From Candidatus Saccharimonadota bacterium (lineage in GTDB: Bacteria > Patescibacteriota > Saccharimonadia > Saccharimonadales > UBA10212), in contig JACPKF010000001.1 of NCBI GenBank assembly GCA_016187125.1, positions 169,653 through 233,652 of the forward strand: DNA of 64,000 nt, read 5' to 3'. The stretch's first letter is position 1. The number at the start of each line of letters is the position of its first letter. The notes beneath the pieces are model-generated. The model saw only the letters and a list, made by a program, of their open reading frames with translations. It made no database searches and was not told where the DNA came from. The translations under genes and the position numbers were made by a program. Shown one piece after another: positions 6,701 through 18,980 of this stretch.

Positions 6701-7651
6701 AGTGGCTGCACCATCCCGAATCTCACCTCCAACACCCGTAGCTGCTCCCGGAAATGGCGCGATAGCTGTAGGGTGATTATGGGTCTCAACCTTGGCAACC
6801 AGATGAGCTGGTTCGGTATGTGTTTGGTAATCTTTACTTACTGGATCTGGGAAAAACCACTCGGCCGCGCCACCTTTTATTACCGCTGCGTTGTCCGAAT
6901 AAGCCGATAAGACGTTATCGCCGGCCTTCTCATAGGTATTTTTAATCATCTTAAATAAGCTTTTGGATGTGGGCATTCCATCAACGACCCAGTTAGCATT
7001 AAATATTTTATGGCGGCAGTGCTCCGAGTTAAGCACGCCAAACATCATTAGCTCGGCATCAGTCGGATTACGGCCTAATTTCTTATAAGCCAGGTGCAGA
7101 TAATCTACCTCGTCATCCGAGAGAGCCAGGCCCATGGAAGTATTAGCTTGCTCAAGAGCTTTTTTTCCATTATTTGAAATGTCTATTATCTTGAGTGGCT
7201 TTGGCTTGGTGGCTTGGAATAAAATCTCGGCAGATTCCAATTTGTCCAACACTGCCTCTGTCATGCGGTCATGAATAAATGGGATTACTGCCTGTTTATG
7301 TAGAGATTTTTTAGAATTTATGTAGTATGCGGTGCCTCGTTCAATTCTTTGAACGTTGACTAGACCTGAGTTACGGGCAATATCTGTGGCTTTGGACGAC
7401 CAAGGCGAAATGGTGCCTGGCCGTGGCACCACTAGCAGCAATTGCCCATCCGAGGAATCTTTTAGGGGATCCCCGTAATTAAGCAACTCTTGTAGCTGTT
7501 TGTCATCTTTAGGCGAGATATTCTTAGCGTCTACGAAATGAATGTACTGAGCATCTACAGCTTCTATTGACGCGTCAACTTTTTGTAGCTGCCTAAGTAG
7601 TCTTTGCCGTCTAAAATCTGGTAATGCAGCCGGACCGTGATAGATTCGCAC
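3797..7651 (-). CDS. purL: Phosphoribosylformylglycinamidine synthase, large single-chain type
   Basis: 1284 aa; NSEHCRHKIFN, ETHNHPT, GVCNGCQ and MPHPER motifs (fused glutaminase domain). Confidence 0.97.
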   Translation of the reverse strand: MRIYHGPAALPDFRRQRLLRQLQKVDASIEAVDAQYIHFVDAKNISPKDDKQLQELLNYGDPLKDSSDGQLLLVVPRPGTISPWSSKATDIARNSGLVNVQRIERGTAYYINSKKSLHKQAVIPFIHDRMTEAVLDKLESAEILFQATKPKPLKIIDISNNGKKALEQANTSMGLALSDDEVDYLHLAYKKLGRNPTDAELMMFGVLNSEHCRHKIFNANWVVDGMPTSKSLFKMIKNTYEKAGDNVLSAYSDNAAVIKGGAAEWFFPDPVSKDYQTHTEPAHLVAKVETHNHPTAIAPFPGAATGVGGEIRDGAATGRGSRSKAGLSGYSVSNLRIPGAIRAWEKDYGKPGQIASPLDIMIEAPLGAAGFNNEFGRPNLGGYFRTYEQSVPELDKSTVWGYHKPIMIAGGVGNIRNEHVKKSNVQPGAKIIVLGGPAMKIGLGGGAASSMRSGESEEELDFASVQRANAEIQRRAQEVINSCWSHGDKNPIISIHDAGAGGLSTSVPEMVHDQGLGAKLELRDIPNADPGMSPMEIWCNEAQERYVLAINEKDLATFAGICQRERCPFAVIGETTTDKRLIINDKLFSNQPVDLPLDILFGSPPKMTRRFNRQAKLSPPFDFQEIDVEEAIERVLHLPSVGSKKFLITIGDRTVGGLVVRDQMVGPWQVPVSDVAVSASSYQGQTGEAMAMGERTPLALIDAPSSARMAVGEAITNIAAAVIAKLSDVKLSANWMAAAGYNREDQNLYDSVKALGQEFCPALGLTIPVGKDSLSMRTLWHEKGKNQSVTSPLSVIISAFAPVADTSLTLTPQLQPGDTSLILIDLGRGKNRLGGSALAQVYNRVGNVCPDAEPEILRNFFGVIQKLNKQGKILAYHDRSDGGLITALCEMSFASRLGLEVDIAGLPGTATEILFNEELGVLIQVKSSDLPTVLSDLKAAVGRCVYDLAKTIPKQEIVIKNKSKLLYSNSRVRLERMWADTSYQIQKLRDNPDCAEEELNLVADDKYPGLSVRTTFNLIERHHKNRPKVAILREQGVNGHVEMAAAFDLAGFRAVDVHLTDLAGGKVSLDDFAGLVSCGGFSYGDVLGAGEGIAKSILFNYDLRKMFGDFFARPDSFSLGVCNGCQMFAALKDIIPGAEMWPRFLKNKSEQFEARLALVKINKSPSIFFQDMEGSYLPIPTAHGEGRAEFSDSQGAARALHDGLVPLQFIDNYGKVSEKYPSNPNGSPQGITALTTPDGRTTIIMPHPERVFLTKQLSWHPSDWGQQSPWFKLFQNARDWAQVR

Positions 7652-8748
7652 TATCTAACCTCCAATGAATCAGCCGCAAATGTAATATTTTTAGGCTTGA
7701 TAACAACTTGTTTTGGTCCCTCTTCGACCTTGCCAGCCAACCACGATCTAAAGCCAAGGTTTTCAGCAATTCCTTGAGCCTTTTTTGCATCTTTTAAGGG
7801 CAAATATATAGCGTAGCCGGCGCCCATGTTGTAGTTACTGTACATTTCTTCATTATCGTTATTGGAGTGTTCCTGAATAAAGTCAAAAATTGGCTCCACC
7901 GGCGGTATATTTTCCAGATTGTAGGTAAACGTCCGTGTGGGGCGCATAATTTTACGCCAGCCATGCCCGGTAATGTTTGATAAATAATGAACGTCTAGGC
8001 CACTGTCAAAGAATTTCCGGACTACTGGCGCATATATATGGGTTGGCTTAAGGACTTCTTCCCCCAAAGTTCGTCCATTTGATAACTTTGTCTGATAACT
8101 GTCTTGCAGCGTGGCGGCAATTTTCCTTATTAGGCTAATACCGTTGGCATGCACACCGTTGGATTCAATCAGTAAAATAGCGTCGCCGGCCTTCAGGTTC
8201 TTTTCACTGAGCAGTTGATTTTTTGGTTTAATCACACCGAATGCTGATCCGGCTAATTCTAGAGCTCCTTTCTCAATGACATTTGGCAGAGACTGTGTTT
8301 CGCCTCCGCCCCAAGCCACCCCAGCTTTATCACAAGCTTTCCGCCAGCCACTAATAAACTCCTTTGCCAGCACTTGATCGCCTAGCCAATCGTATGAACT
8401 TGACGACCAATAGGCACTTAGGGCTACCGGGGTTGCGCCGACACTAATTAAGTCGTTAATAATGGCCGCTACGCTGTCTTGGGCCACCGCCCCGAAAAAT
8501 GATTTGCCTATTTGCTGATATACCGCCTGAGCGACCAAACTTTTTGTTCCCAGACCCTCAGAAATCAACGCGCCATATTGCTCACCCATATCAAATACGT
8601 AGGCCGATTCGCCCCTCGTGCTTTCTACTTCCTTAAACCCGAACGGTAAATTTTTGGCTGTGGCTCGACCTTCTTTTTGAGCCAAAACTTTCATCGGATC
8701 GGCCAGCGAGTAATTTACCGATTTATGATAAGAAAACTTTTTAGCCAT
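7651..8748 (-). CDS. purM: Phosphoribosylformylglycinamidine cyclo-ligase (AIR synthetase)
   Basis: EGLGTK, GGET, SNGVHANG, NITGHG and YNMGAG motifs; purine operon context. Confidence 0.93.
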   Translation of the reverse strand: MAKKFSYHKSVNYSLADPMKVLAQKEGRATAKNLPFGFKEVESTRGESAYVFDMGEQYGALISEGLGTKSLVAQAVYQQIGKSFFGAVAQDSVAAIINDLISVGATPVALSAYWSSSSYDWLGDQVLAKEFISGWRKACDKAGVAWGGGETQSLPNVIEKGALELAGSAFGVIKPKNQLLSEKNLKAGDAILLIESNGVHANGISLIRKIAATLQDSYQTKLSNGRTLGEEVLKPTHIYAPVVRKFFDSGLDVHYLSNITGHGWRKIMRPTRTFTYNLENIPPVEPIFDFIQEHSNNDNEEMYSNYNMGAGYAIYLPLKDAKKAQGIAENLGFRSWLAGKVEEGPKQVVIKPKNITFAADSLEVR

Positions 8749-9471: not shown

Positions 9472-10431
9472 ATGGGTGTGCAAACAATTTCTCGGACTGA
9501 TTTTGCTTTTCCGGGGCAAACTGGGGTCTACCGTGGTAAAGTTCGCGACGTTTACGGCATCGGCGATAAATACATCGTTGCCGTCGCCACCGATAGGATT
9601 TCAGCCTTTGACGTTATTTTGCCTCGAGGCATTCCCTACAAGGGACAAGTGCTTAATCAATTGGCGGCTCATTTTTTGAAAGCCACGGAGGGGATTACGC
9701 CAAATTGGCTGGTGGCTGTGCCCGATCCAAATGTCAGCATCGGCTATAAATTCGAGCCTTTTAAGATTGAAATGGTTGTTAGAGGCTGTTTAGTCGGTCA
9801 TGCCTGGCGGGAATATAAGACTGGCAAAAGGCAAATATCCGGATTTGCAATGCCTGATGGCTTAAAAGAATATGACAAATTTCCGGAGCCGATTCTTACT
9901 CCCGCAACCAAGGCGGAAGAAGGTCACGACGAAGACATATCACCTGAAGAAATAGTCAGTAGAGGCTTAGCCACAAAATCGGAGTGGGAAAAATTAGCCC
10001 AACTCACCCACCAGCTATTTGCCAAAGGCCAGAAAATGGCTAAGGCTCGTGGTTTATATCTTGCCGACACCAAATATGAGTTTGGTAAATCCGGCGATAA
10101 AATATATCTTATCGATGAAGTTCACACCCCCGATTCCTCCAGATACTTTTACCTAGATAGTTACAATAAATATTCAAAAGATCGCAAAGACGAGCCAAAG
10201 CATTTGAGCAAGGAATTCGTCCGCGAGTGGCTGATGGAACAGGGTTTCAACGGCCGAAAGGGCCAGAAAATGCCTGAGATGACCGACGAATTCGTTAATT
10301 CGGTATCGGAGCGCTACATTGAATTATATGAAGAGATGAGCGGGCAGAAATTTATTAAACCGCCGGCCGGCCAAGATATAATGAAGCGAATAGAAACAAA
10401 TGCAAGGGAGGCTTTAGGAAAATTACAATGA
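9472..10431 (+). CDS. purC: SAICAR synthetase (long form)
   Basis: YRGKVRDVY, TDRISAFD, ADTKYEFG, DEVHTPDSSR and SKEFVR motifs. Confidence 0.97.
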   Translation: MGVQTISRTDFAFPGQTGVYRGKVRDVYGIGDKYIVAVATDRISAFDVILPRGIPYKGQVLNQLAAHFLKATEGITPNWLVAVPDPNVSIGYKFEPFKIEMVVRGCLVGHAWREYKTGKRQISGFAMPDGLKEYDKFPEPILTPATKAEEGHDEDISPEEIVSRGLATKSEWEKLAQLTHQLFAKGQKMAKARGLYLADTKYEFGKSGDKIYLIDEVHTPDSSRYFYLDSYNKYSKDRKDEPKHLSKEFVREWLMEQGFNGRKGQKMPEMTDEFVNSVSERYIELYEEMSGQKFIKPPAGQDIMKRIETNAREALGKLQ

Positions 10432-10570
10432 TTATCAATCACCTCCCATTTACTGTTAATTATTCACCTTTTACTGTGTGTTTACCTTTTACTGTTTACC
10501 ATTTAAAACCGAAAACGGATAATAGTAAATGCATAGAAAACCGAAAACGGATAATAGTAAACTGCATCGG
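10432..10570. repeat. Low-complexity element with a 25-bp direct repeat
   Basis: AAAACCGAAAACGGATAATAGTAAA at 10505-10529 and 10537-10561, preceded by repeated TTTACTG/TTTACC units. Confidence 0.75.
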
Positions 10571-10579
10571 AGATGCTTA

Positions 10580-11980
10580 ATGAAGCCGATTAAATTGCCG
10601 AAGGTTAGCGATAAACCAATGCATGATGCCATAGACCCGCTAGACGGCCGTTATTACGATCCTGAAATTGCCAAGTTTTTGTCCGAGCGCAGCACGATTG
10701 CTTACAAGGCCTACGTAGAGGTGGCATTGGCACATAATCTGGCCGACTTCAAAATTTGCTCTGACGCTGACGCGCAGGCCATCGAAGCCGCAGCCGCTAA
10801 AGTTACAGCCGAAGAAGTCACCGAAGAAGAAAAAGCTACCAAGCACGACATCAAGGCTTTGGTGAATGCTATTAAAAAATACACCGGCGAGGATGCTGGA
10901 AGATTTGTCCATTTTGGCGCCACCAGTTACGACATTGTTTCAACCGCCACCAGTTTGCAATTTAGGGCAGCAGCCAATGAACTCATCATTCCCCGCGGCA
11001 GAAAACTGCTTAAAACTTTGGTTGATTTGACCGGGCGTTATGCCGACACGCCGCAGATCGGCCGCACCCACGGCCAGCACGCTGTGCCAATTACTTTCGG
11101 CTTTGTCATGAGCCAGTACGTTTCACGGCTTGGCAAGTCACTCAAGTCTGTTGAGTATAAGGCCAACCACTTAAAAGGCAAGTTCTCCGGCGCAGTCGGT
11201 GCCTATAACGCATTGTCAGTTTTTGTCGATGATCCGCTGGAGTTCGAGAAGAAGTTTTTGGAAAAACTGGGGCTTGAGTCATCGGAATCTTCGACCCAGA
11301 TCGTACCGCCGGATAACATGGTCCGCTTACTTGACGAGCTGGCCATCATAGCCGGCATCATGGCCAATCTGGCGCACGACATGCGCCATCTTCAGCGGAC
11401 CGAGATTGCCGAAATCCGTGAGAAGTTCGAGGAGGGCCAAACCGGCTCCTCGACCATGGCCCATAAACGCAACCCGATCAGTTTTGAAAATGTAGCCAGC
11501 TTGCACAAACAGGTTCTATCTCAAATTCTGAATGCTAACCTTAATCTAACCAGTGAACACCAGCGCGACTTGACCGATTCGGCTTCGGCCCGCTTCTACG
11601 GGGTTCCGGTGGCCACGGTTGCCGTCATGCTCAGCCGACTGAACTCAGCACTATCCAAGATCGAGGTTGATGAAGCCAATATGCAGCGCAACCTAGCCAT
11701 GAGCGGTGGAGCCATCGCCGCCGAACCGCTGTATCTTATGCTCGCCAAATATGGTCACACTTCAGCTCACGAGAAGTCCAAGGAACTGGCACATCAAGCT
11801 TTGGATTCAAATCAACCGTTAGTCGAAGCGATTGCCGCCGACACCGAAGCCAAAACTTACTGGGACAAATTCACCGAAATGGAAAAACAAATCATCACCG
11901 AACCACAAAAATATTATCTTGGGCTGGCATCCGAAAAGGCAAATGCTATCGCATCCAACTGGCATAAAAACCTAAATTAA
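10580..11980 (+). CDS. purB: Adenylosuccinate lyase
   Basis: HFGATSYD, GRTHGQHA, GSSTMAHKRNP and EHQRDLTDS motifs; the ORF-track extension to 10529 is repeat-derived. Confidence 0.96.
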   Translation: MKPIKLPKVSDKPMHDAIDPLDGRYYDPEIAKFLSERSTIAYKAYVEVALAHNLADFKICSDADAQAIEAAAAKVTAEEVTEEEKATKHDIKALVNAIKKYTGEDAGRFVHFGATSYDIVSTATSLQFRAAANELIIPRGRKLLKTLVDLTGRYADTPQIGRTHGQHAVPITFGFVMSQYVSRLGKSLKSVEYKANHLKGKFSGAVGAYNALSVFVDDPLEFEKKFLEKLGLESSESSTQIVPPDNMVRLLDELAIIAGIMANLAHDMRHLQRTEIAEIREKFEEGQTGSSTMAHKRNPISFENVASLHKQVLSQILNANLNLTSEHQRDLTDSASARFYGVPVATVAVMLSRLNSALSKIEVDEANMQRNLAMSGGAIAAEPLYLMLAKYGHTSAHEKSKELAHQALDSNQPLVEAIAADTEAKTYWDKFTEMEKQIITEPQKYYLGLASEKANAIASNWHKNLN

Positions 11981-11982
11981 TT

Positions 11983-12213
11983 TTATTTACGTTTTTTATC
12001 GATTTCACTTTTGACGATTTTCCACTCGGCTATGGACGGATGGTCGCTACCGTCGGACGATTTTGGTGTACTTTCGAATCGTCTCATTTGAATCTCAAAC
12101 AGCTCATTAACAACTTGCGAAAGCGATTTGCTGTGCTGCAATGAATATAGTTGCAGGAATTTTTTAACATACGGCTCTAAGTAAATGGTCGTTTTCTCAG
12201 TTAATTTAGTCAC
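11983..12213 (-). CDS. Small ribbon-helix-helix-like DNA-binding protein
   Basis: 76 aa; KTTIYL beta-strand, helix, then KSLSQVVNELF helix; AGGAGG lies 9 nt before the GTG start. Confidence 0.7.
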   Translation of the reverse strand: MTKLTEKTTIYLEPYVKKFLQLYSLQHSKSLSQVVNELFEIQMRRFESTPKSSDGSDHPSIAEWKIVKSEIDKKRK

Positions 12214-12274
12214 CTTGTCATACCTCCTATACTCGTCACACTGTCTGTATAGTTCTTACGAAATATTACTGTTA

Positions 12275-12706
12275 CAACGTTACAACGTCAAGACGCTGTT
12301 AAGTGTGACAGTGAGTATGCTGGGGTAATAGGCGTGCATGAATGTGACGTTGTGACGTCAAGACGTTATTATGCATTTTATGGCGTGATAAAATTTAATT
12401 TCTGAGACTAATTCTAGCGTTATGACGTCATGACGTTGCGGAGATTGGTGGGAATCTTGTGTTAAAACTACATCTGTTTAAACCTAAATCTGTCGAAAAA
12501 TGACGTTATAACGTTATGACGTCATTGGCAGGATGAGAGTTAATGGTGGGTTAGTTAACTAAATTGAATGGTTGCCTTACATTGGACGTGGAGTTGAGTG
12601 TTAACGTTGTGACGCTGTACCGTCATGACGTTGCGCGGAGTGGTGGAAGTTCCCTGTGTTAAAACTAGATCTGCCGAAAAAATGACGTTATGGCGTCATA
12701 GCGTCA
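12275..12706. repeat. Six clusters of tandem 8-bp boxes, consensus TGACGT(C/T)A
   Basis: 19 abutting 8-mers in clusters starting at 12275, 12345, 12415, 12501, 12602 and 12683. Confidence 0.88.
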
Positions 12707-12754
12707 TGCGGTAAGGGATATGCTGTAAGGGTGGTGTATGTTCGACGAGCTACA

Positions 12755-12800
12755 TTCAGCAATCAAGAAAAACAAATAGTTCTAACAAAAACTACCTTCG
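12755..12800 (+). pseudogene. Degenerate copy of the purB 3' end (remnant 1)
   Basis: Reads FSNQEKQIV versus native FTEMEKQII, followed by ACAAAAACTACCT. Confidence 0.5.
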
Positions 12801-14195
12801 GCGAGCACGAGTGTTTGAAGCATGCCGACGCACCGGTTGAGATGTTTGGTGTATCCCAGCGTCATGTATCATCCTTTTAAGACTTCTCTTGGGCTGATTG
12901 TTATCGTTACCACCGCTTCGTTCTACAGGTTTGATCGTAGGCGGACTTGTACTTTCGGATAAGCTACCCGCTGTGCCGTAATAGCCGGCTTTAAGATGCC
13001 TTAATCCCCCGATAGATTGTAGTTTATCGACAACGATCGCAAAATCTCCCGGTGGCAATCTATCGCCAAAAAGGTCTCGAGTTATTTCAGCCACGTGCAC
13101 TGTTGGTTTATCAGCAAATAATGCCAGTACTCTTTCTTCAAAATCATCTGGAAGCTTAAATCCATTGGTTGCCGCAGCTTTTTTCAGATCTGATGCATGG
13201 TCGCCTATGTTATACGACGGGGTAGTAAATACATCTCGGCCTTGGTTAATTACAAAGCCTCGCTCGCAAAGATCCAGCAATACCGAGCGCACCTTTTCAA
13301 TGTTTTCAGTCTCAAGCTGTGCTCGAAAAATTTTTCTGATAAGAGAAAGAGTCGATACGGCTCGCCTAGTCACATTTATGGCTGTAACTGCTTCGGCCTC
13401 AAAGTTAGGATGAAGATTAAAAGGACGCTTATAGTTGGCTAAAGCTTCCATTGCCATCCGTTTTTCCTCAACAATTTTATCCCGAATACCGAGTATTATT
13501 TCTTGTATACTTTCTCCAGCTTCGGAATCGACAGTATTGGTTGTTCCATCGACTAATCGATCCCTCAAATTTTGAAGAGGAACTTTTTTACTACTTTCTA
13601 CTAGTGACCTACGACCGATAGAAATAGCAGGAGGAGTTACCCACTCCTCGGCTGCTATATCAACTACTCGTTCGCCGCTGGCCCATCGCCGAACTCTTCT
13701 AATTTGCGTTTCTATGCTTTTCCTATTTGATGTCCCTGGCAATTCCGACATTAACCTTGTAAATGCAACTTCCACCTCTTCATCGTTCATTGTGACAATC
13801 TCAGCATGACCATATACATTCTCCAAAAACGAGCGCATTCGCTGGCTCGAGGCATCGGGTTCTATTTTTTTCAACGTTTTTGATTCTGAAACAGCCTGAG
13901 GGTCTACGTTATCCGACATGTCATCTCTACGCTCAGGCTGTTGTAGCTGTATAACTTCAGCATCTCGTACTTCTCCTTGTGGAAATGTTTCTGGCATAGG
14001 TTCAGCGTTCATTACTTCAGAATATTTCTGAGTGTAAGCATCTGATAAAAGACTATCCAGCTCAATCGGAAACAGATCGACTGAATGTTCTTTAAGCAAA
14101 AATCTCAGCGAGGCAACATACTCACCGGCTGCCCGCAAAGCCAGCCTGTTTTGGGTAGACAAGTCAATATTTAGTTCAAAAAAATCTGTTGACAT
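12792..14195 (-). CDS. Hypothetical protein with a possible HTH/winged-helix region
   Basis: 467-aa ORF; SGERVVDIAAEEWVTPPAISIGRR resembles an HTH motif. Confidence 0.6.
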   Translation of the reverse strand: MSTDFFELNIDLSTQNRLALRAAGEYVASLRFLLKEHSVDLFPIELDSLLSDAYTQKYSEVMNAEPMPETFPQGEVRDAEVIQLQQPERRDDMSDNVDPQAVSESKTLKKIEPDASSQRMRSFLENVYGHAEIVTMNDEEVEVAFTRLMSELPGTSNRKSIETQIRRVRRWASGERVVDIAAEEWVTPPAISIGRRSLVESSKKVPLQNLRDRLVDGTTNTVDSEAGESIQEIILGIRDKIVEEKRMAMEALANYKRPFNLHPNFEAEAVTAINVTRRAVSTLSLIRKIFRAQLETENIEKVRSVLLDLCERGFVINQGRDVFTTPSYNIGDHASDLKKAAATNGFKLPDDFEERVLALFADKPTVHVAEITRDLFGDRLPPGDFAIVVDKLQSIGGLRHLKAGYYGTAGSLSESTSPPTIKPVERSGGNDNNQPKRSLKRMIHDAGIHQTSQPVRRHASNTRARRR

Positions 14196-14269
14196 TGTAT
14201 CCCCGATATTAAACCATTTTTCCTTAGTTAATAAAATGGTGGATGGTTGTTCGCTAGAAAAAAGTCTGT

Positions 14270-14386
14270 TGGGATAAATTTACTGACCAGGAAAAACAAA
14301 ATCATCACCGAACCACAAAAATACTACCTCGGCCTCGCATCCCAAAAAGCCAAAACTATAGCCGCTCCTGGAAAAAATCAATCTAA
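14270..14386 (+). pseudogene. Displaced copy of the purB 3' end (remnant 2, two frameshifts)
   Basis: WDKFTDQEKQ/IITEPQKYYLGLASQKAKTIA/SWKKSI* versus native WDKFTEMEKQIITEPQKYYLGLASEKANAIASNWHKNLN*. Confidence 0.92.
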
Positions 14387-15039
14387 TATGTACTTAAGTA
14401 TTCGATAGTAGCGGAGGTAGCGGAAAGGCCTAAGCCACCTATCCGTTCAGCATGTAATGATAGAACATCGGCTAATGTTCCTCGTTGTTCAGGCAATACT
14501 GCTTCACGAGGGTCCTGACGCGTGGCCAGGCGACGAGCGATTATTTCTGCTACCGTTCTCGAATTTTGATATACGTACGGACGATTAAAAGCAAAAAATG
14601 CGGTTACTATATCGCGGAATCGTTTATCGTGGTGCATCAACACTTCCGTTCGCTCGGTTATAACAGCATTCCTAGCCCGGCGAAAGTTTTGGCGCGGTTC
14701 ATCAAACTCCAACAGCGCAGCGTCAAGCAATATATCGGCTGCCATTGTGGCGCTGGCACGAGCTGCCCTAACCTCAAGTCCGGCTTCTGTCAAATCAGTC
14801 CATAGCGGGACTGTCATTTCTGGTACTTCGGGCTGAGCGCCAAAAAAACTGTCTGTTGTATGGTGAAAATCAATGCCCAGGTCTATCTGGACGCTCAATC
14901 CCCTTATTGGAACATTTTCACCATGTAAAGCTTTATGAATACCGGCGAAATCAGGTAATGTGCTGCCTAGGACAATATCGCGCTCACGGCCACTAAAAAC
15001 AGAAGTAGTTATATGTGTGTGCGCCAGGATGTTCGGCAT
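14383..15039 (-). CDS. ACP phosphodiesterase (AcpH)-like metal-dependent hydrolase
   Basis: N-terminal NILAH, LGSTLPDF and GIDFHHTTDSFF motifs. Confidence 0.6.
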   Translation of the reverse strand: MPNILAHTHITTSVFSGRERDIVLGSTLPDFAGIHKALHGENVPIRGLSVQIDLGIDFHHTTDSFFGAQPEVPEMTVPLWTDLTEAGLEVRAARASATMAADILLDAALLEFDEPRQNFRRARNAVITERTEVLMHHDKRFRDIVTAFFAFNRPYVYQNSRTVAEIIARRLATRQDPREAVLPEQRGTLADVLSLHAERIGGLGLSATSATIEYLSTY

Positions 15040-15076
15040 TTAAATAATATATACCAAGTTTTAGCCATAGTACAAA

Positions 15077-15175
15077 CAAGAAAGACAAATCATCACCGAG
15101 CCGCAAAAATACTATCTAGGTCTTGCTTCCCAAAAAGCCAAAACTGTAACGGCCTACTGGAAAAGCAAGCTCTGA
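15077..15175 (+). pseudogene. Displaced copy of the purB 3' end (remnant 3, intact frame)
   Basis: QERQIITEPQKYYLGLASQKAKTVTAYWKSKL*, with no start codon. Confidence 0.92.
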
Positions 15176-15187
15176 GATATTTGGAGT

Positions 15188-16090
15188 TTAGTTGGAGCCA
15201 AGCCTTGCTACGGCTATAGGTCTTACTGCGTTTTTGAGATTATCATGACTGAATAGTGATTCATCAGACCCAAAGATAGAAACAAGGATGTTGACCTTTC
15301 TCCCTCTGCCCTCTCTTAGAACGCAACCATCGCGACCACTGAAACTATGCAGTGATCTGTCTGGGAATACCAAGCCAACACCTTTCATTATTGCCCTAGC
15401 ATCTTTCCTACCATGACAGCTAAGTCTAAATTCTGATCCCTTGTTCTTAACAATTTGAGCAATTGCCAGTCCTCCAATGCCAATTGTCTTAACGACTAAA
15501 GCAGCTTTTTGCTCGCTATATGGATCTACTACCTTGCCAAAAGAGTCTCTAACAGTGTCATTAAAAATAGTCGTGTCTTGAATGATTCCCTCAGATATCC
15601 TATCTGAAGCGCGATCAACAGCCCTAGCGAAGGGCCTATAGAAACGCGCTGCGGCTATCACACCGGCCAATGGCAAGTATAAAAGAGGGTAGCGAAACTC
15701 GAATGGTCCAATTGTCGGGGCAGCAGCTCGCGCCCGAACTATAATTTCTTCTCTTTGCTGAAATAAAGATCGCCCTCCTTCCATCTGGGGAATTCGCTTG
15801 CTAACTAAATGACCAAAAATAGTTGGCCAGATGGTTGGAAGAATGGGCTCTTCAAGCCTCCTAGCATAACGAAGCGCTTGATCGTCTGTCACCTGTGCAC
15901 GTTCGAATGTAACTAAAGTCGATTCTTCTAATGGAGTAAGCCGTCTACTTTCATATCCAAAACCAGGCTTTGTTATTTGAGTAAAATTAATGCCTGACTG
16001 TGGATCTAGTTGCGGGCGAACTTCCAAGAGTAGGGAATCGTCTGGTCCTCGACCCATAATAAACTTGCGTGGTGTTTCCCTAAGTACCAT
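15188..16090 (-). CDS. Hypothetical protein
   Basis: 300-aa ORF with no recognised motif. Confidence 0.55.
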   Translation of the reverse strand: MVLRETPRKFIMGRGPDDSLLLEVRPQLDPQSGINFTQITKPGFGYESRRLTPLEESTLVTFERAQVTDDQALRYARRLEEPILPTIWPTIFGHLVSKRIPQMEGGRSLFQQREEIIVRARAAAPTIGPFEFRYPLLYLPLAGVIAAARFYRPFARAVDRASDRISEGIIQDTTIFNDTVRDSFGKVVDPYSEQKAALVVKTIGIGGLAIAQIVKNKGSEFRLSCHGRKDARAIMKGVGLVFPDRSLHSFSGRDGCVLREGRGRKVNILVSIFGSDESLFSHDNLKNAVRPIAVARLGSN

Positions 16091-16176
16091 TTATAATATA
16101 CCTCTCTTCAATGGAGTAACAATACAACAAAAATTATAGTATTTCAATAAAATGGCCCTATTTTACTCAAAATACT

Positions 16177-16204
16177 TTATAGCGCGCGGTGGCCGATTAT
16201 CAGT
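16177..16204 (-). pseudogene. Displaced purD 3' end (remnant D2)
   Basis: ACT GAT (A) ATC GGC CAC CGC GCG CTA TAA = TD/IGHRAL* versus native TDIGFRVLNH*. Confidence 0.6.
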
Positions 16205-16212
16205 GTTTTCAA

Positions 16213-16797
16213 CTAGAGCCACTCAGCTACGCCCCCATGGTGCGAGCAAGTACCACTGCGAGACTGGCTATAGCTGTATGAGCCATCGCGGCATCTAGCC
16301 GTTGGCGAATTCCCAGGTATCGGTTCTGGTGTCGGGCTACATACAGTATTACCAATAGAATTCACGTATGTACCATTTGGACAGGTAGGTATAACTGGAG
16401 CAACATATGTGCCGTGATTAATAACTTTCGTTATTGGTTGGGTAGTTATTTCTTCTTTAAGCTGAATTCGGCCGGTTTCCGTACCGTTGGTATATGTGAC
16501 ATCATAGATCCTCGTCCTCACCCCATTGAAACCTTCAATCGTAACGTTGTCGGTTCCGGCAGCCAGTGTCACATCATCGACTTTTTTTGTTTCAAAGGGT
16601 ACAGCTTCTGTGACAGTTACTGTTTTATGCTCGATATTGTCGCTTTTTACTACTGAAGGAGCTTCAACGGGCGGAGCTGTTTGATTATTAGAGGTCGCGC
16701 CGGTAGCTCCAATTGTTACGATTGATACACCAGTTACTACGCCTACTTTTCCAACAGTAGATAGAGCCGCGAACCAGCCCTTCAATGCACCAAACAT
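16213..16797 (-). CDS. Membrane-anchored G5 domain plus DUF3761-like protein
   Basis: N-terminal TM; G5-like VPFETKKVDD...EGFNG...VINHGT; C-terminal TARCRDGSYSYSQSRSGTCSHHGGVAEWL. Confidence 0.85.
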   Translation of the reverse strand: MFGALKGWFAALSTVGKVGVVTGVSIVTIGATGATSNNQTAPPVEAPSVVKSDNIEHKTVTVTEAVPFETKKVDDVTLAAGTDNVTIEGFNGVRTRIYDVTYTNGTETGRIQLKEEITTQPITKVINHGTYVAPVIPTCPNGTYVNSIGNTVCSPTPEPIPGNSPTARCRDGSYSYSQSRSGTCSHHGGVAEWL

Positions 16798-16855
16798 ACC
16801 CCACCCCCACTTTATATATTTTTATTGTACTCGTGGAATCAATAAACGGACAGAT

Positions 16856-16885
16856 TTAGAGAACGCGGAGGCCGATGTCATGAAA
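16856..16885 (-). pseudogene. Displaced purD 3' end (remnant D1)
   Basis: FHDIGLRVL* versus native FRTDIGFRVLNH*; separated from purD by a heptamer-type repeat (16886-16920). Confidence 0.65.
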
Positions 16886-16922
16886 ATAGCTAAGAGCCAT
16901 TAGCTAATAGCTCTTAGCAGGT

Positions 16923-18206
16923 TTAGTGATTCAAAACCCGAAAACCAATATCCGTACGAAAATGCATATCTTTAAAATGGATTCCACTTGGCCCAATTTG
17001 AGCGTAGGCTTTTGCAAGGGCATTTTTTAAATCTTTGCCGTAGGCGGTTACATTTAAAACCCGACCACCATTTGTCAAAATTTTGCCATCCTCGTTTTTT
17101 GTGCCAGCATGAAAAATAACAACGTCCGGATCTTCAACACTATTTAGTCCCATAATCTCGTAGTCTGTTTGGTAACTCCCCGGATAACCACCACTTGTAA
17201 GCACTATATTGACAGCCGCTCCGGGTTTAATTCGGATAGCTTTAGAAGTTAGTCTGCCTTCCGCAGACTGCATTAGAAGCGGATAGATATCTTCATCAAT
17301 CACCCGCATCATTGGTTGGCACTCCGGATCGCCAAAACGACAGTTGAACTCAATTACTTTTGGATCGCCTGCCTCGGTTATAAAAAGTCCGCCATAGAGC
17401 ACACCTTTGTAGGGTCTACCATCGGATCGCATGCCATCAACGGTGGCCTGGATTATTTCCTTTTGAACTTGTTCATCTAACTCATCGGTCATAAATGGTA
17501 CAGGGGTATATGCACCCACACCTCCGGTATTGGGTCCTTTGTCGCCATCATAAATTCGTTTATGATCTTGAAGATAGGGCAGCATCAGAATATTTTCTCC
17601 GTCACTGAGCGCAAAAGTGCTGACTTCTTGGCCACGCAGTCTTTCTTGAAAGACAATTTGGTTACCTGAATCGCCAAAGATTTTTTTGGCCATGATATCG
17701 CCAAGTGCCGTTTCTGCTTCTTCTTGGGTCTCGGGCAGAATCACACCTTTGCCGCCGGCAAGGCCGTCGGCTTTAATTACATAACTCTGCGGCGGATGCT
17801 GCCGCACATACGCTTTTGCCTCGGCCAAAGAACTGACTACCGTGGAGTCCGGGTAGGGAATTTTATGCCTTTTTAAGAAACTATCCGAGAATACCTTGCT
17901 GGTCTCGATCTTAGCAGCAGCTTTGCTCGGTCCAAAAATTTTTAAACCTTCCTTCTCAAATAAGTCTACAATGCCTTCAGCCAAGGGCATCTCCGGGCTG
18001 ACAACCGTCAGATCGATCTTATTTTGCTTGGCGAAGTCGGCCAGTTTATTAAGTTCGCTAACATTGATATCTATATTTTCACCGACTTGGCTTGTTCCCC
18101 CGTTACCCGGCGCAAAATATACTTTTTCAACCAGTGGCGACTGGGCAATTTTCCAGCTTAGAGCATGGGCTCGTCCCTCACCACCAACGATTAAGACTTT
18201 GGCCAT
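16923..18206 (-). CDS. purD: Phosphoribosylamine-glycine ligase
   Basis: APGNGG, KADGLAGGKGV, QDHKR, GPNTGG and EFNCRFGDPE motifs. Confidence 0.97.
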   Translation of the reverse strand: MAKVLIVGGEGRAHALSWKIAQSPLVEKVYFAPGNGGTSQVGENIDINVSELNKLADFAKQNKIDLTVVSPEMPLAEGIVDLFEKEGLKIFGPSKAAAKIETSKVFSDSFLKRHKIPYPDSTVVSSLAEAKAYVRQHPPQSYVIKADGLAGGKGVILPETQEEAETALGDIMAKKIFGDSGNQIVFQERLRGQEVSTFALSDGENILMLPYLQDHKRIYDGDKGPNTGGVGAYTPVPFMTDELDEQVQKEIIQATVDGMRSDGRPYKGVLYGGLFITEAGDPKVIEFNCRFGDPECQPMMRVIDEDIYPLLMQSAEGRLTSKAIRIKPGAAVNIVLTSGGYPGSYQTDYEIMGLNSVEDPDVVIFHAGTKNEDGKILTNGGRVLNVTAYGKDLKNALAKAYAQIGPSGIHFKDMHFRTDIGFRVLNH

Positions 18207-18269
18207 CACCCAACCTCCGGTTGCTTAAGTAAAAAGTCATTAGTAATAAGCAATAAGCCTTTTTGCATT

Positions 18270-18980
18270 TTACTTTTTACATTTTGCATGTTGCTCATTT
18301 TTTACCTTGTAAAAATGCCGGCGTTTTTCTATAAAATCTGATAAGTCTTTCGGCAGATGCTTTTTCTGGGATTGCTTAACTCGCTCAAACAAAATCTCGG
18401 CCGTATCAGCGGGTCCGACAGGTACTTTATGTTCGGCAATAGTCGGACCCTCGTCGTAATTTTTGGATACCGCATGGAGTGTGTGGCCAGCCTTTTGGGC
18501 GGGGTGAGCCAAAACGAATTCTTGGACATGAATACCGATCAGCCCTTTGGTAGCCGGCAGTAATCCGGGATGAGTATTGAGCATCATCGCCTGATAAGGA
18601 CTCTTATACTCAGAGCGCCAGCCAAATTTATAGACTAGTCTTTGACCGATCATTTTCATGTAACCCATAAGAAGAACCAGTTCGAAACCACCGTCCTTGA
18701 TAAGATCTACTATCGCCTTCTCTTCCTGCGCAGTTTGTAGGCCGGGCTGTGAACTATTGGTATCGGGATGAGTTTTACTATTAATAAGTGCTGTCTTAAT
18801 GCTCAGGCCATACTCGCTGTTAAGATTGGCTATACGGCGGAAAATTCCGGCATCTTTGTTATTGCAGATCACCAGACCAACTTGCGGCAGACTTGGTTCC
18901 TTAACGCCGGCTCTTATGAGGGCCTCGGTGGTTGTTCCTTCCCCCGACGCTAAAACCGCAACCTTTGCTCCACTCATCAT
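18270..18980 (-). CDS. purN: Phosphoribosylglycinamide formyltransferase
   Basis: VLASGEGT, LLMGYM, NTHPGLLP and YDEGP motifs; start placed at ATG 18980; C-terminus is repeat-derived. Confidence 0.9.
   Translation of the reverse strand: MMSGAKVAVLASGEGTTTEALIRAGVKEPSLPQVGLVICNNKDAGIFRRIANLNSEYGLSIKTALINSKTHPDTNSSQPGLQTAQEEKAIVDLIKDGGFELVLLMGYMKMIGQRLVYKFGWRSEYKSPYQAMMLNTHPGLLPATKGLIGIHVQEFVLAHPAQKAGHTLHAVSKNYDEGPTIAEHKVPVGPADTAEILFERVKQSQKKHLPKDLSDFIEKRRHFYKVKNEQHAKCKK

Follow-up and report, generated by a model that had tools for sequence, protein, structure and literature searches.

Within a window of 64,000 nucleotides (nt; the whole stretch of DNA analysed) from a genome of Candidatus Saccharimonadota (G000; assembly of 828 kb, 97% complete), we examined the interval between purB, on the forward strand, and purD, on the reverse strand, two convergent genes with five other open reading frames (ORFs) in between. 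A sequence-only reading had described five unrelated accessory genes here, punctuated by displaced 3' ends ("tails") of the two flanking genes, and the ORF list and Pfam matches agree with this gene content. The tail array is confirmed as real, recurrent and dynamic. Its features are as follows, with the strand in brackets.

10580..11980 (+): purB, adenylosuccinate lyase (Pfam Lyase_1 E 5e-46, ASL_C E 1e-16)
11983..12213 (-): cargo 1, orphan antitoxin homologue of 76 amino acids (aa), ribbon-helix-helix (RHH)-like (DUF6364 E 0.004, below cut-off)
12269..12705 (no strand): six clusters of (T)GACGT repeats with an 8-bp period, from a motif search
12754..12780 (+): purB relic 1, 5' part only (FSNQEKQI), from a position matrix
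12792..14195 (-): cargo 2, 467-aa orphan protein, no Pfam or NCBIfam match
14270..14386 (+): purB tail 2, from WDKF, with two frameshifts (blastn 81% nt identity over 93 nt, 14270-14362, E 7e-19)
14383..15039 (-): cargo 3, 218-aa acyl carrier protein (ACP)-phosphodiesterase-like protein (Pfam ACP_PD E 2e-4)
15077..15175 (+): purB tail 3, frame intact to the stop (blastn 82% nt identity over 62 nt, 15080-15141, E 2e-12)
15188..16090 (-): 300-aa protein between the two stacks, no family match
16177..16204 (-): purD tail 2 (TD/IGHRAL*, 1-nt insertion), from a matrix of relatives' tails (chance expectation 0.006 in the interval)
16213..16797 (-): cargo, G5 + DUF3761 protein, by domain match
16856..16885 (-): purD tail 1 (DIGLRVL*), from a matrix (chance expectation 0.003 in the interval)
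16889..16918 (-): gene-less hairpin/short-repeat filler of 30 nt with a 13-bp stem, between the purD stop and tail 1
16923..18209 (-): purD, phosphoribosylamine-glycine ligase (Pfam GARS_N/A/C)

The final ~100 nt of purB are the target of the left stack and the final ~25-40 nt of purD that of the right stack. All five proposed tails, three of purB and two of purD, proved real, each passing a test by blastn or by position matrix. The relic purB end at 12754-12780 escaped blastn; it is the top non-native genome-wide match (20.3 bits, against 15.8 for the best one outside the locus) of a matrix built from three native purB ends, the window's own included, and its 21-nt extension scores 16, where the 99th percentile of the null is 3. 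The purD tails are only 24-40 nt long, similar to each other and spelled unlike the three native ends. Blastn with the purD end of G000 itself missed both, a peptide scan gave weak scores (25 and <22), and native ends used in an ungapped scan of 24 nt were of no help. The matrix that detected them was built only from eight tails of two relatives; the tail at 16856-16885 ranks first of 1.66 million genome positions, and the other strand of the interval gave no match. The sequence-only description is refined at two places: the last tails of purB and purD enclose the 300-aa gene, which lies outside both stacks, and the purD-proximal unit is gene-less. A filler comparable to the one in this unit occupies the same position behind purD in both relatives described below. 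Elsewhere in G000, short-repeat fillers (GCTAAG.../AGCTA units) between ribosomal protein genes (L100, C6:59000-73000) resemble the hairpin filler directly behind purD in all three genomes.

A scaffolding or assembly artefact was rejected, since the region 10000-18500 is contained in one piece in contigs from three of four public runs. Over this region they depart from the window at one substitution and one indel, neither of them in the array. The window DNA may itself derive from these runs, which serve as an assembly check only, not as independent occurrences. The two differences, a G>A at 17577 and an extra A behind 18310 in the 3' part of a purN-like gene, are present in the contigs of three runs and represent a strain variant or a consensus error. 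The purB start at 10580 was inferred from relatives, the ORF from the first ATG beginning at 10529. A direct repeat of ~24-32 nt (10506-10561) separates purC and purB and creates the in-frame upstream ATG that lengthens the purB ORF by 17 codons.

Arrays in related genomes and tails at other genes

Among 49 genomes of the family surveyed, six have this purB, and extra purB ends were found in three of them: G000 and two genomes of one other, sister genus (G021 and G060, 95% and 87% complete). G021 carries six purB and five purD tails, G060 eight and five; sequences L018-L022 and L038, which repeat those of G021 and G060, were counted once. The G060 pieces join into one purB-purD interval (C5 and C29 through a 54-nt overlap, C29 and C26 via the near-identical metagenome contig L024), and the two sides of the G021 array lie on separate contigs. 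At 30 of 30 further purB loci, searched with their own C-terminus as query, there was no tail above background; five of these loci have <3 kb downstream, and the set excludes four fetched regions, three duplicate loci, a distant homologue and an ORF whose end is broken. When genomes of the order were drawn evenly, 48 of 401 had a purB match, and the query used for this draw detected extra ends in G000 and G021 only. Because of these 30 tail-free loci and the outcome of the draw, we conclude that the purB-purD stack is lineage-restricted.

The units hold zero to three genes in either orientation, and comparison of the interval in G000, G021 and G060 showed that cargo content varies between genomes. 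Shared cassettes occupy a different order among the three arrays: the RHH-like gene takes slot 1 in the window and lies behind tail 3 in both relatives, the ACP-phosphodiesterase-like gene lies behind tail 2 in the window and before tail 1 in G060, and genes for NYN, rhodanese plus SCO4226-like, RRM, a DUF5674 pair, a G5 protein and a 270/300-aa protein recur in different slots. The first slots of the arrays hold the RHH-like gene, DUF2283/DUF4258 and a short-chain dehydrogenase. The same cassettes being in different slots in different genomes, the array is not a simple chronological record, and the ordered one that the sequence-only reading had seen in it is not supported in that form. Its idea that cargo travels with a 3' end fared better, since the window's purB end and the next gene resemble the tail-plus-RHH unit of both relatives (68-69% nt identity, as for the RHH-like gene itself).

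Two conserved stretches lie within the arrays. Upstream of the RRM gene in the purD stack, ~280 nt (L071 ~6800-7080, L070 ~7970-8240) are conserved and may hold a small ORF or an RNA leader, gene and stretch together being 82% identical over 599 nt; a 284-nt non-coding segment (L071 ~10880-11160, L026 2791-3074) is 95% identical between G021 and G060. Outside the array, an NYN gene of G000 (C6:1200-2600), 70% identical to the array cassette, lies between ~150-nt direct repeats of a dispersed element, and a second G060 array gene has its homologue next to it; this cargo moves with repeats of another type as well.

Over 19 codons, 15 gap-free purB tails differ from the purB of their own genome at 96 of 195 synonymous and 73 of 660 non-synonymous sites (proportions pS 0.49 and pN 0.11, pN/pS 0.22), in a set whose members are non-independent, with one duplicate included and three tails with indels left out. 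Since the divergence is mainly synonymous, the tails derive from once-coding alleles and not from local duplicates, as had been proposed. Both window purB tails compared are slightly closer to the purB of relatives (47-50 of 57 bases) than to their own (47 and 45). A tree of 78-nt tails, short and mostly weakly supported, has those of the three genomes intermixed and is a hint at most. From about a dozen upstream junctions, the starts of 13 of 17 purB tails fall into the 11 nt upstream of one codon (one of the 13 having lost 12 nt internally), and the other four reach 21-29 nt further left. The first ~30 nt of the purB tails (IITEPQKYYL) are almost invariant, third positions included, while the following 30 nt vary freely, and the exact 12-27-nt runs common to tails concentrate at -2 to +29.

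Comparison of single cassettes located the breakpoints. In the NYN cassette of L023 and L024, the left tail differs at six of its first 35 positions; 741 identical nt come next, an exact and recent transfer, followed by ~90% identity into the right tail up to +23 and by divergence after. The cassette comprises the 3' half of the left tail and the first ~25-30 nt of the right tail, and its left and right breakpoints differ (after +34 versus about +24 to +30, 5-11 nt apart). For the RRM cassette, G021 and G060 have in common the right junction and the first 15 nt of the purD tail and then diverge. The tails of both cassettes are hybrids, with a 5' part from the unit before and a 3' part from the unit after. 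The proposal that a whole new 3' end displaces a whole old one finds no support in that form: the best-resolved tails are mosaic, exchanged around +24 to +35, and one breakpoint lies within a cargo gene, the NYN gene, in whose coding region identity between G021 and L023 switches from ~75% to ~99%. Because of this breakpoint, and because GACGT repeats (predicted operators, see below) mark the ends of other shared segments in the relatives' arrays, generic homologous recombination appears to act throughout the arrays.

Tails also lie behind RNase J (two), polA, rpoD, DNA Pol IV, dnaK and several further G000 genes, where all names except Pol IV are what we take the genes to be from their sequences. 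The pattern thus recurs, as expected, with about ten G000 genes carrying one or two tails, although the controls of the scans are not clean.

Other G000 genes with one or two displaced 3' ends downstream that are spelled differently: C7:38933-41020, C7:15787-18477, C7:11753-12922, C8:80882-82204, C8:94084-94923, C2:21084-21560, C2:29201-31204, C4:4785-7673, C4:20565-23108, C8:14342-14827, C8:101021-101587

A nucleotide scan of 601 genes gave 10 matches of a gene tail downstream of its gene and 2 upstream, compared with 3 for gene middles downstream and 7 each for gene heads downstream and upstream; the scan is noisy, many matches arising from dispersed repeats and miscalled ORFs. The peptide scan at the lower threshold found downstream tails for 11 of 601 genes, with 13 for downstream heads and 1-5 for the other 14 controls, and at the higher threshold 6 versus 0-3. 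In ten of 11 matches the tail terminates at a stop no more than one codon off the native register; one match is of low complexity, and peptide scans select amino-acid-conserved tails, so that codon bias in them is partly built in. The C-terminal 15 residues of RNase J are identical in all 30 family loci (L102-L131).

Cargo genes and GACGT repeats

The family of cargo 1, which we take to be RHH-like, has homologues in 21 of 401 genomes, mostly adjoining a small gene that is presumably RelE-like. It was rejected as a candidate mobility gene because, among the 20 loci listed, its homologues adjoin such small genes and no integrases. In three further genomes of the order (L082, L086, L090) a polA-like 3' end is directly followed by an RHH/RelE-like pair, at what is another variable site.

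All four genome-wide matches of the triple GACGT motif fall inside 12269-12705, where a promoter-like sequence (TTGACG-17-TAATAT) starts at 12291; G021 has four clusters of the repeats and G060, like the window, six. The two-unit motif precedes 18 of 22 RHH homologues versus 5 of 385 background windows and overlaps there a TTGACG-N17/18-TATAAT promoter, in front of a gene that is usually followed by the RelE-like gene. For this reason the GACGT repeats are likely the autoregulatory operator of the antitoxin, predicted to have multiplied here as the toxin was lost. A role as recombinase, partition or uptake sites was dropped in view of this match to the predicted promoter/operator of the RHH family, and the pattern was not found in viral contigs.

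The 467-aa orphan protein was the only homologue of itself among 7,995 scored candidates and had no usable match in the ESM Atlas; with neither a homologue nor a fold found, its candidacy as transposase or nuclease was rejected. Cargo 3 occurs also in G060 (79% nt identity, same right junction), a 40% identical homologue of the 300-aa protein lies between two purB tails of G060, and the N-terminal 133 aa of the G5 + DUF3761 protein are 55% identical to a G5 protein of the G060 array.

Routes by which the stacks may have grown

The reading that we favour, and regard as probable with considerable room for error, is that gene tails act as reusable short homology arms, through which host recombination, with no integrase involved, inserts and reshuffles DNA acquired from related cells. 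A donor fragment would consist of a long left homology (purB or the previous cassette), a new 3' end, cargo and the 5' part of the next tail; it would pair by its long arm, on the purB- or purD-proximal side, and its short right junction would close within the conserved core of ~30 nt, either in the native end of the recipient or in any of the tails, by homologous or homology-facilitated recombination. The cassette would bring a working 3' end and leave a hybrid tail behind. By an alternative route, a looped-out circle of tail and cargo re-integrated by RecA would yield the same product. RecA, ComEC and DprA are present in all three genomes, and the reading is consistent with the natural competence demonstrated in Saccharibacteria (PMC10633639). 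The 5' part of each tail, which never coded, would be lost by erosion up to the border of the crossover zone. A common tail start would follow from this, and three of the four longer-reaching purB tails do show the frameshift, deletion or decay expected of erosion. Rare illegitimate joins are assumed to have given rise to the first tail and to every new junction of cargo and tail. Of the two mechanisms offered by the sequence-only reading, homology-driven recombination seems to fit the locus better than a trans-acting recombinase.

Several points weigh against tails as homology arms. Ordinary recombination does not predict the clustered tail start unless erosion is assumed, and purB upstream of this start is about as similar among the three natives. 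Perfect matches between tails of one genome span only 9-27 nt, and purD tails ~24-40 nt, far below the flanks, down to 221 bp, with which homologous integration by natural competence has been demonstrated in Saccharibacteria, as described in the relevant part of PMC10633639. Only two or three cassette pairs underlie the mosaic breakpoints, and no joint of an excised or empty array form was found within the contigs of the four runs, which drop rare variants. In addition, a generic process predicts more than what was found at the 30 tail-free purB loci and at RNase J, where tails occur within 1.5 kb in 2 of 30 family genomes.

We consider it unlikely, while taking it more seriously than the explanations that follow, that the units are decayed integrative elements resembling cis-mobilizable elements (CIMEs). 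A phage or integrative element would use its own integrase on a core site, located ~95 nt ahead of the stop in purB and ~30 nt ahead of it in purD, and the cassettes would be att-bearing remnants that move when an integrase acts in trans. This would account for the sharp tail starts, for a ~30-nt core nearly invariant even at synonymous sites and for the short, highly similar purD tails, and CIMEs of 1.2-13 kb together with gene-less microCIMEs of 130-220 bp are described in tandem at 3' ends of protein genes in the sections of PMC7563491 concerned with them. On the other hand, no mobility or nuclease family, and hence no integrase remnant or transposase, was recognised in the relatives' 45 array ORFs (22 without a Pfam match) and the window's five, in agreement with the sequence-only reading; the ORFs of L026 at 7456-7683 and 7718-7927 are antisense calls, and a pair there that we take to be HicA/HicB-like was left out of this family scan. 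Serine recombinases (PF00239, PF07508) are absent from all three genomes, PF00589 had no match near the array, and the tyrosine recombinases, one each in G000 and G021 and two in G060, are of housekeeping Xer type. That of G000 (306 aa, XerC/D-like) lies on another contig beside a gene that is presumably ndk-like; it is best matched by XerC/XerD, exceeds the cut-off of the broad XerA/integron-integrase model NF040815 and reaches 133.6 bits against a cut-off of 265 for the integron-integrase model TIGR02249. As exact degenerate patterns, the purB and purD tail cores were both without a match among 2.9 million viral contigs; of 401 genomes, only one had the purD pattern. Furthermore, the left and right NYN breakpoints do not coincide, another lies inside a cargo gene, and the roughly ten unrelated genes carry tails without a shared motif, none being common to the tail starts of purB, purD, RNase J, polA, rpoD and DNA Pol IV.

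Rather more doubtful is a nuclease-seeded origin, in which the tail start is set by a site-specific cut near EKQI, made by a free-standing homing-type endonuclease, an HUH/Y1 transposase or a restriction enzyme. During repair, a foreign 3' end with its neighbour gene would be copied from donor DNA, and homologous recombination would later shuffle the stack. Such a cut explains both the common start and the synonymously diverged new ends; GC content at third positions (GC3) of the last 12 codons is lower in 13 tail-bearing genes (-0.12 versus -0.01, p 0.014), four Y1/HUH genes are present in G000, and insertion with long target duplication has been linked to restriction genes, according to the portion of PMC2853133 that treats it. 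Yet the Y1/HUH genes all lie far from the locus, no nuclease family was recognised in any array, many of whose ORFs are unannotated, and neither was a restriction-modification family among the cargo of the window or the relatives. The first slots, where an endonuclease gene was looked for and not found, hold the RHH-like, DUF2283/DUF4258 and dehydrogenase genes named above, and from the G021 and G060 natives to their tails the core shows conservation instead of recoding. The idea that new ends are deliberately recoded to rare codons was rejected, native codons not being significantly rarer than tail codons (30 of 50, p 0.2) and the GC3 drop being mild.

Local duplication and decay, with the tails as slippage or deletion scars of their own genes and cargo fixed, is very improbable: one exact 19-nt duplicate behind dnaK speaks for it, and it is contradicted by the pN/pS of 0.22, by tails that are not closest to their own gene and by cargo and order that differ among genomes. 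Equally hard to credit are reverse-transcribed cassettes, in which transcripts of convergent neighbours that reach ~100 nt into purB would be turned into DNA and inserted again. In favour of them, cargo mostly converges on purB, the distance from gene start to next tail is 30-75 nt for several genes, and a T-tract is read on the minus strand at the tail start. Against them, no reverse transcriptase was found in the three genomes, several cargo genes lie on the other strand and units hold up to three genes with promoter/operator DNA.

Building on tails as homology arms, we put forward as a possibility rather than an expectation that one Saccharimonadales lineage maintains a self-sustaining, recombinase-free analogue of an integron. 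The purB and purD ends would be standing att-like sites of ~30 nt, kept uniform by cassette-level selection. Through these sites, natural transformation would add single-gene cassettes from a community pool, reorder them and carry them from genus to genus, and the orphan RHH protein with its multiplied operators may have been co-opted into the system.

Patescibacteria have tiny genomes yet large and variable accessory gene sets, and the entry of single genes is poorly resolved. At the purB-purD locus, genes would enter by a route whose scars can still be read, which ranges from single scars at about ten genes up to stacks of 13 units and extends across genera. With a narrow crossover zone and transformable Saccharibacteria, the minimal homology and enzyme requirement of this route are directly testable, and displaced gene ends could serve as a search rule for recently mobile genes where integrase-based island finders see nothing.

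Comparison with known systems

No description of housekeeping-gene-tail arrays in Patescibacteria was found in the literature, most subscription papers and supplements lying outside the scope of the search; the main text of a survey of gene exchange in aquifer Patescibacteria (PMC12455944) contains neither "integrase" nor "hotspot", and its relevant passages describe no such array. CIMEs and microCIMEs, in the account given in PMC7563491, are likewise integrase-less tandem units of similar size at the 3' end of a protein gene, gene-less ones included, and tandem units between direct repeats are what we find here; CIMEs derive from integrative and conjugative or integrative and mobilizable elements (ICEs/IMEs) and need a cognate integrase, whereas here none was found. 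As to a single fixed crossover point, the core is conserved and the tail starts are clustered, while the NYN breakpoints lie 5-11 nt apart and another falls in cargo, so that the breakpoints do not seem to share one base. The three arrays, a small sample, revealed no cognate ICE, IME or phage with an integrase at the same site, and the viral contigs lacked the core patterns.

Insertions with long target duplication (Furuta et al. 2010, PMC2853133; Nobusato et al. 2000 as cited there) resemble the locus in having no mobility genes and direct repeats >30 bp, some overlapping gene 3' ends, and mostly concern naturally competent species, as the cited part of that article reports. Here too the inserts are <20 kb without a mobility gene, with purB tails of 90-120 nt and purD tails borderline at 24-40 nt. 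The published cases are single restriction-modification inserts with near-identical repeats (44/46 to 47/47), whereas our repeats are synonymously diverged alleles, stacked up to eight deep and re-used.

The closest likeness in mechanism is with the effector-immunity arrays of Rhs, contact-dependent inhibition (CDI) and type VI secretion system (T6SS) loci (Kirchberger et al. 2017, PMC5361080; Jackson et al. 2009 as cited there). In the passages of that article on array growth, additions are made serially and without integrase behind a conserved gene body, and orphaned 3' pieces are displaced downstream, as here; homology-facilitated illegitimate recombination was proposed for their origin and homologous recombination for their spread, with integrons as a comparison, and our reading of the mechanism is much like this proposal for Vibrio arrays. 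There, the swapped 3' end is a variable toxin and the cargo its immunity gene, whereas purB and purD are housekeeping targets whose ends keep their function. Their cargo is unrelated, each tail consists of 25-120 nt of equivalent sequence, and the stacks of the two convergent genes grow towards each other. Stacked orphan 3' ends from other strains, variable breakpoints and the lack of an integrase are thus features of a displacement array that the locus displays; a polymorphic-toxin target with immunity cargo is not among them.

Neisseria minimal mobile elements, as defined in the relevant section of PMC3787668, similarly place a variable cassette between conserved flanks, exchanged by homologous recombination after transformation; the whole interval is replaced, and the definition given there includes neither internal gene tails nor stacking. 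Variable content between the same conserved flanks is found in our genomes (in G000 and the joined contigs of G060, with G021 split). Integron cassette arrays consist of small units between related repeats, reordered among genomes, with cargo rich in toxin-antitoxin-like genes and genes of no known function. The purB-purD units, with zero to three genes between related repeats and shared among arrays in different order, are alike in this respect; they differ in having coding-gene ends as repeats, no IntI at the array or in the genome and no recognised attC-type palindrome, the junction repeats being purB and purD codons and Rfam giving only sub-threshold chance matches, with no dedicated attC model run. 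The array lacks a defining feature of each named family except the broadly defined minimal mobile elements and, judged by these analogies, seems to work like a displacement array and look like an integron.

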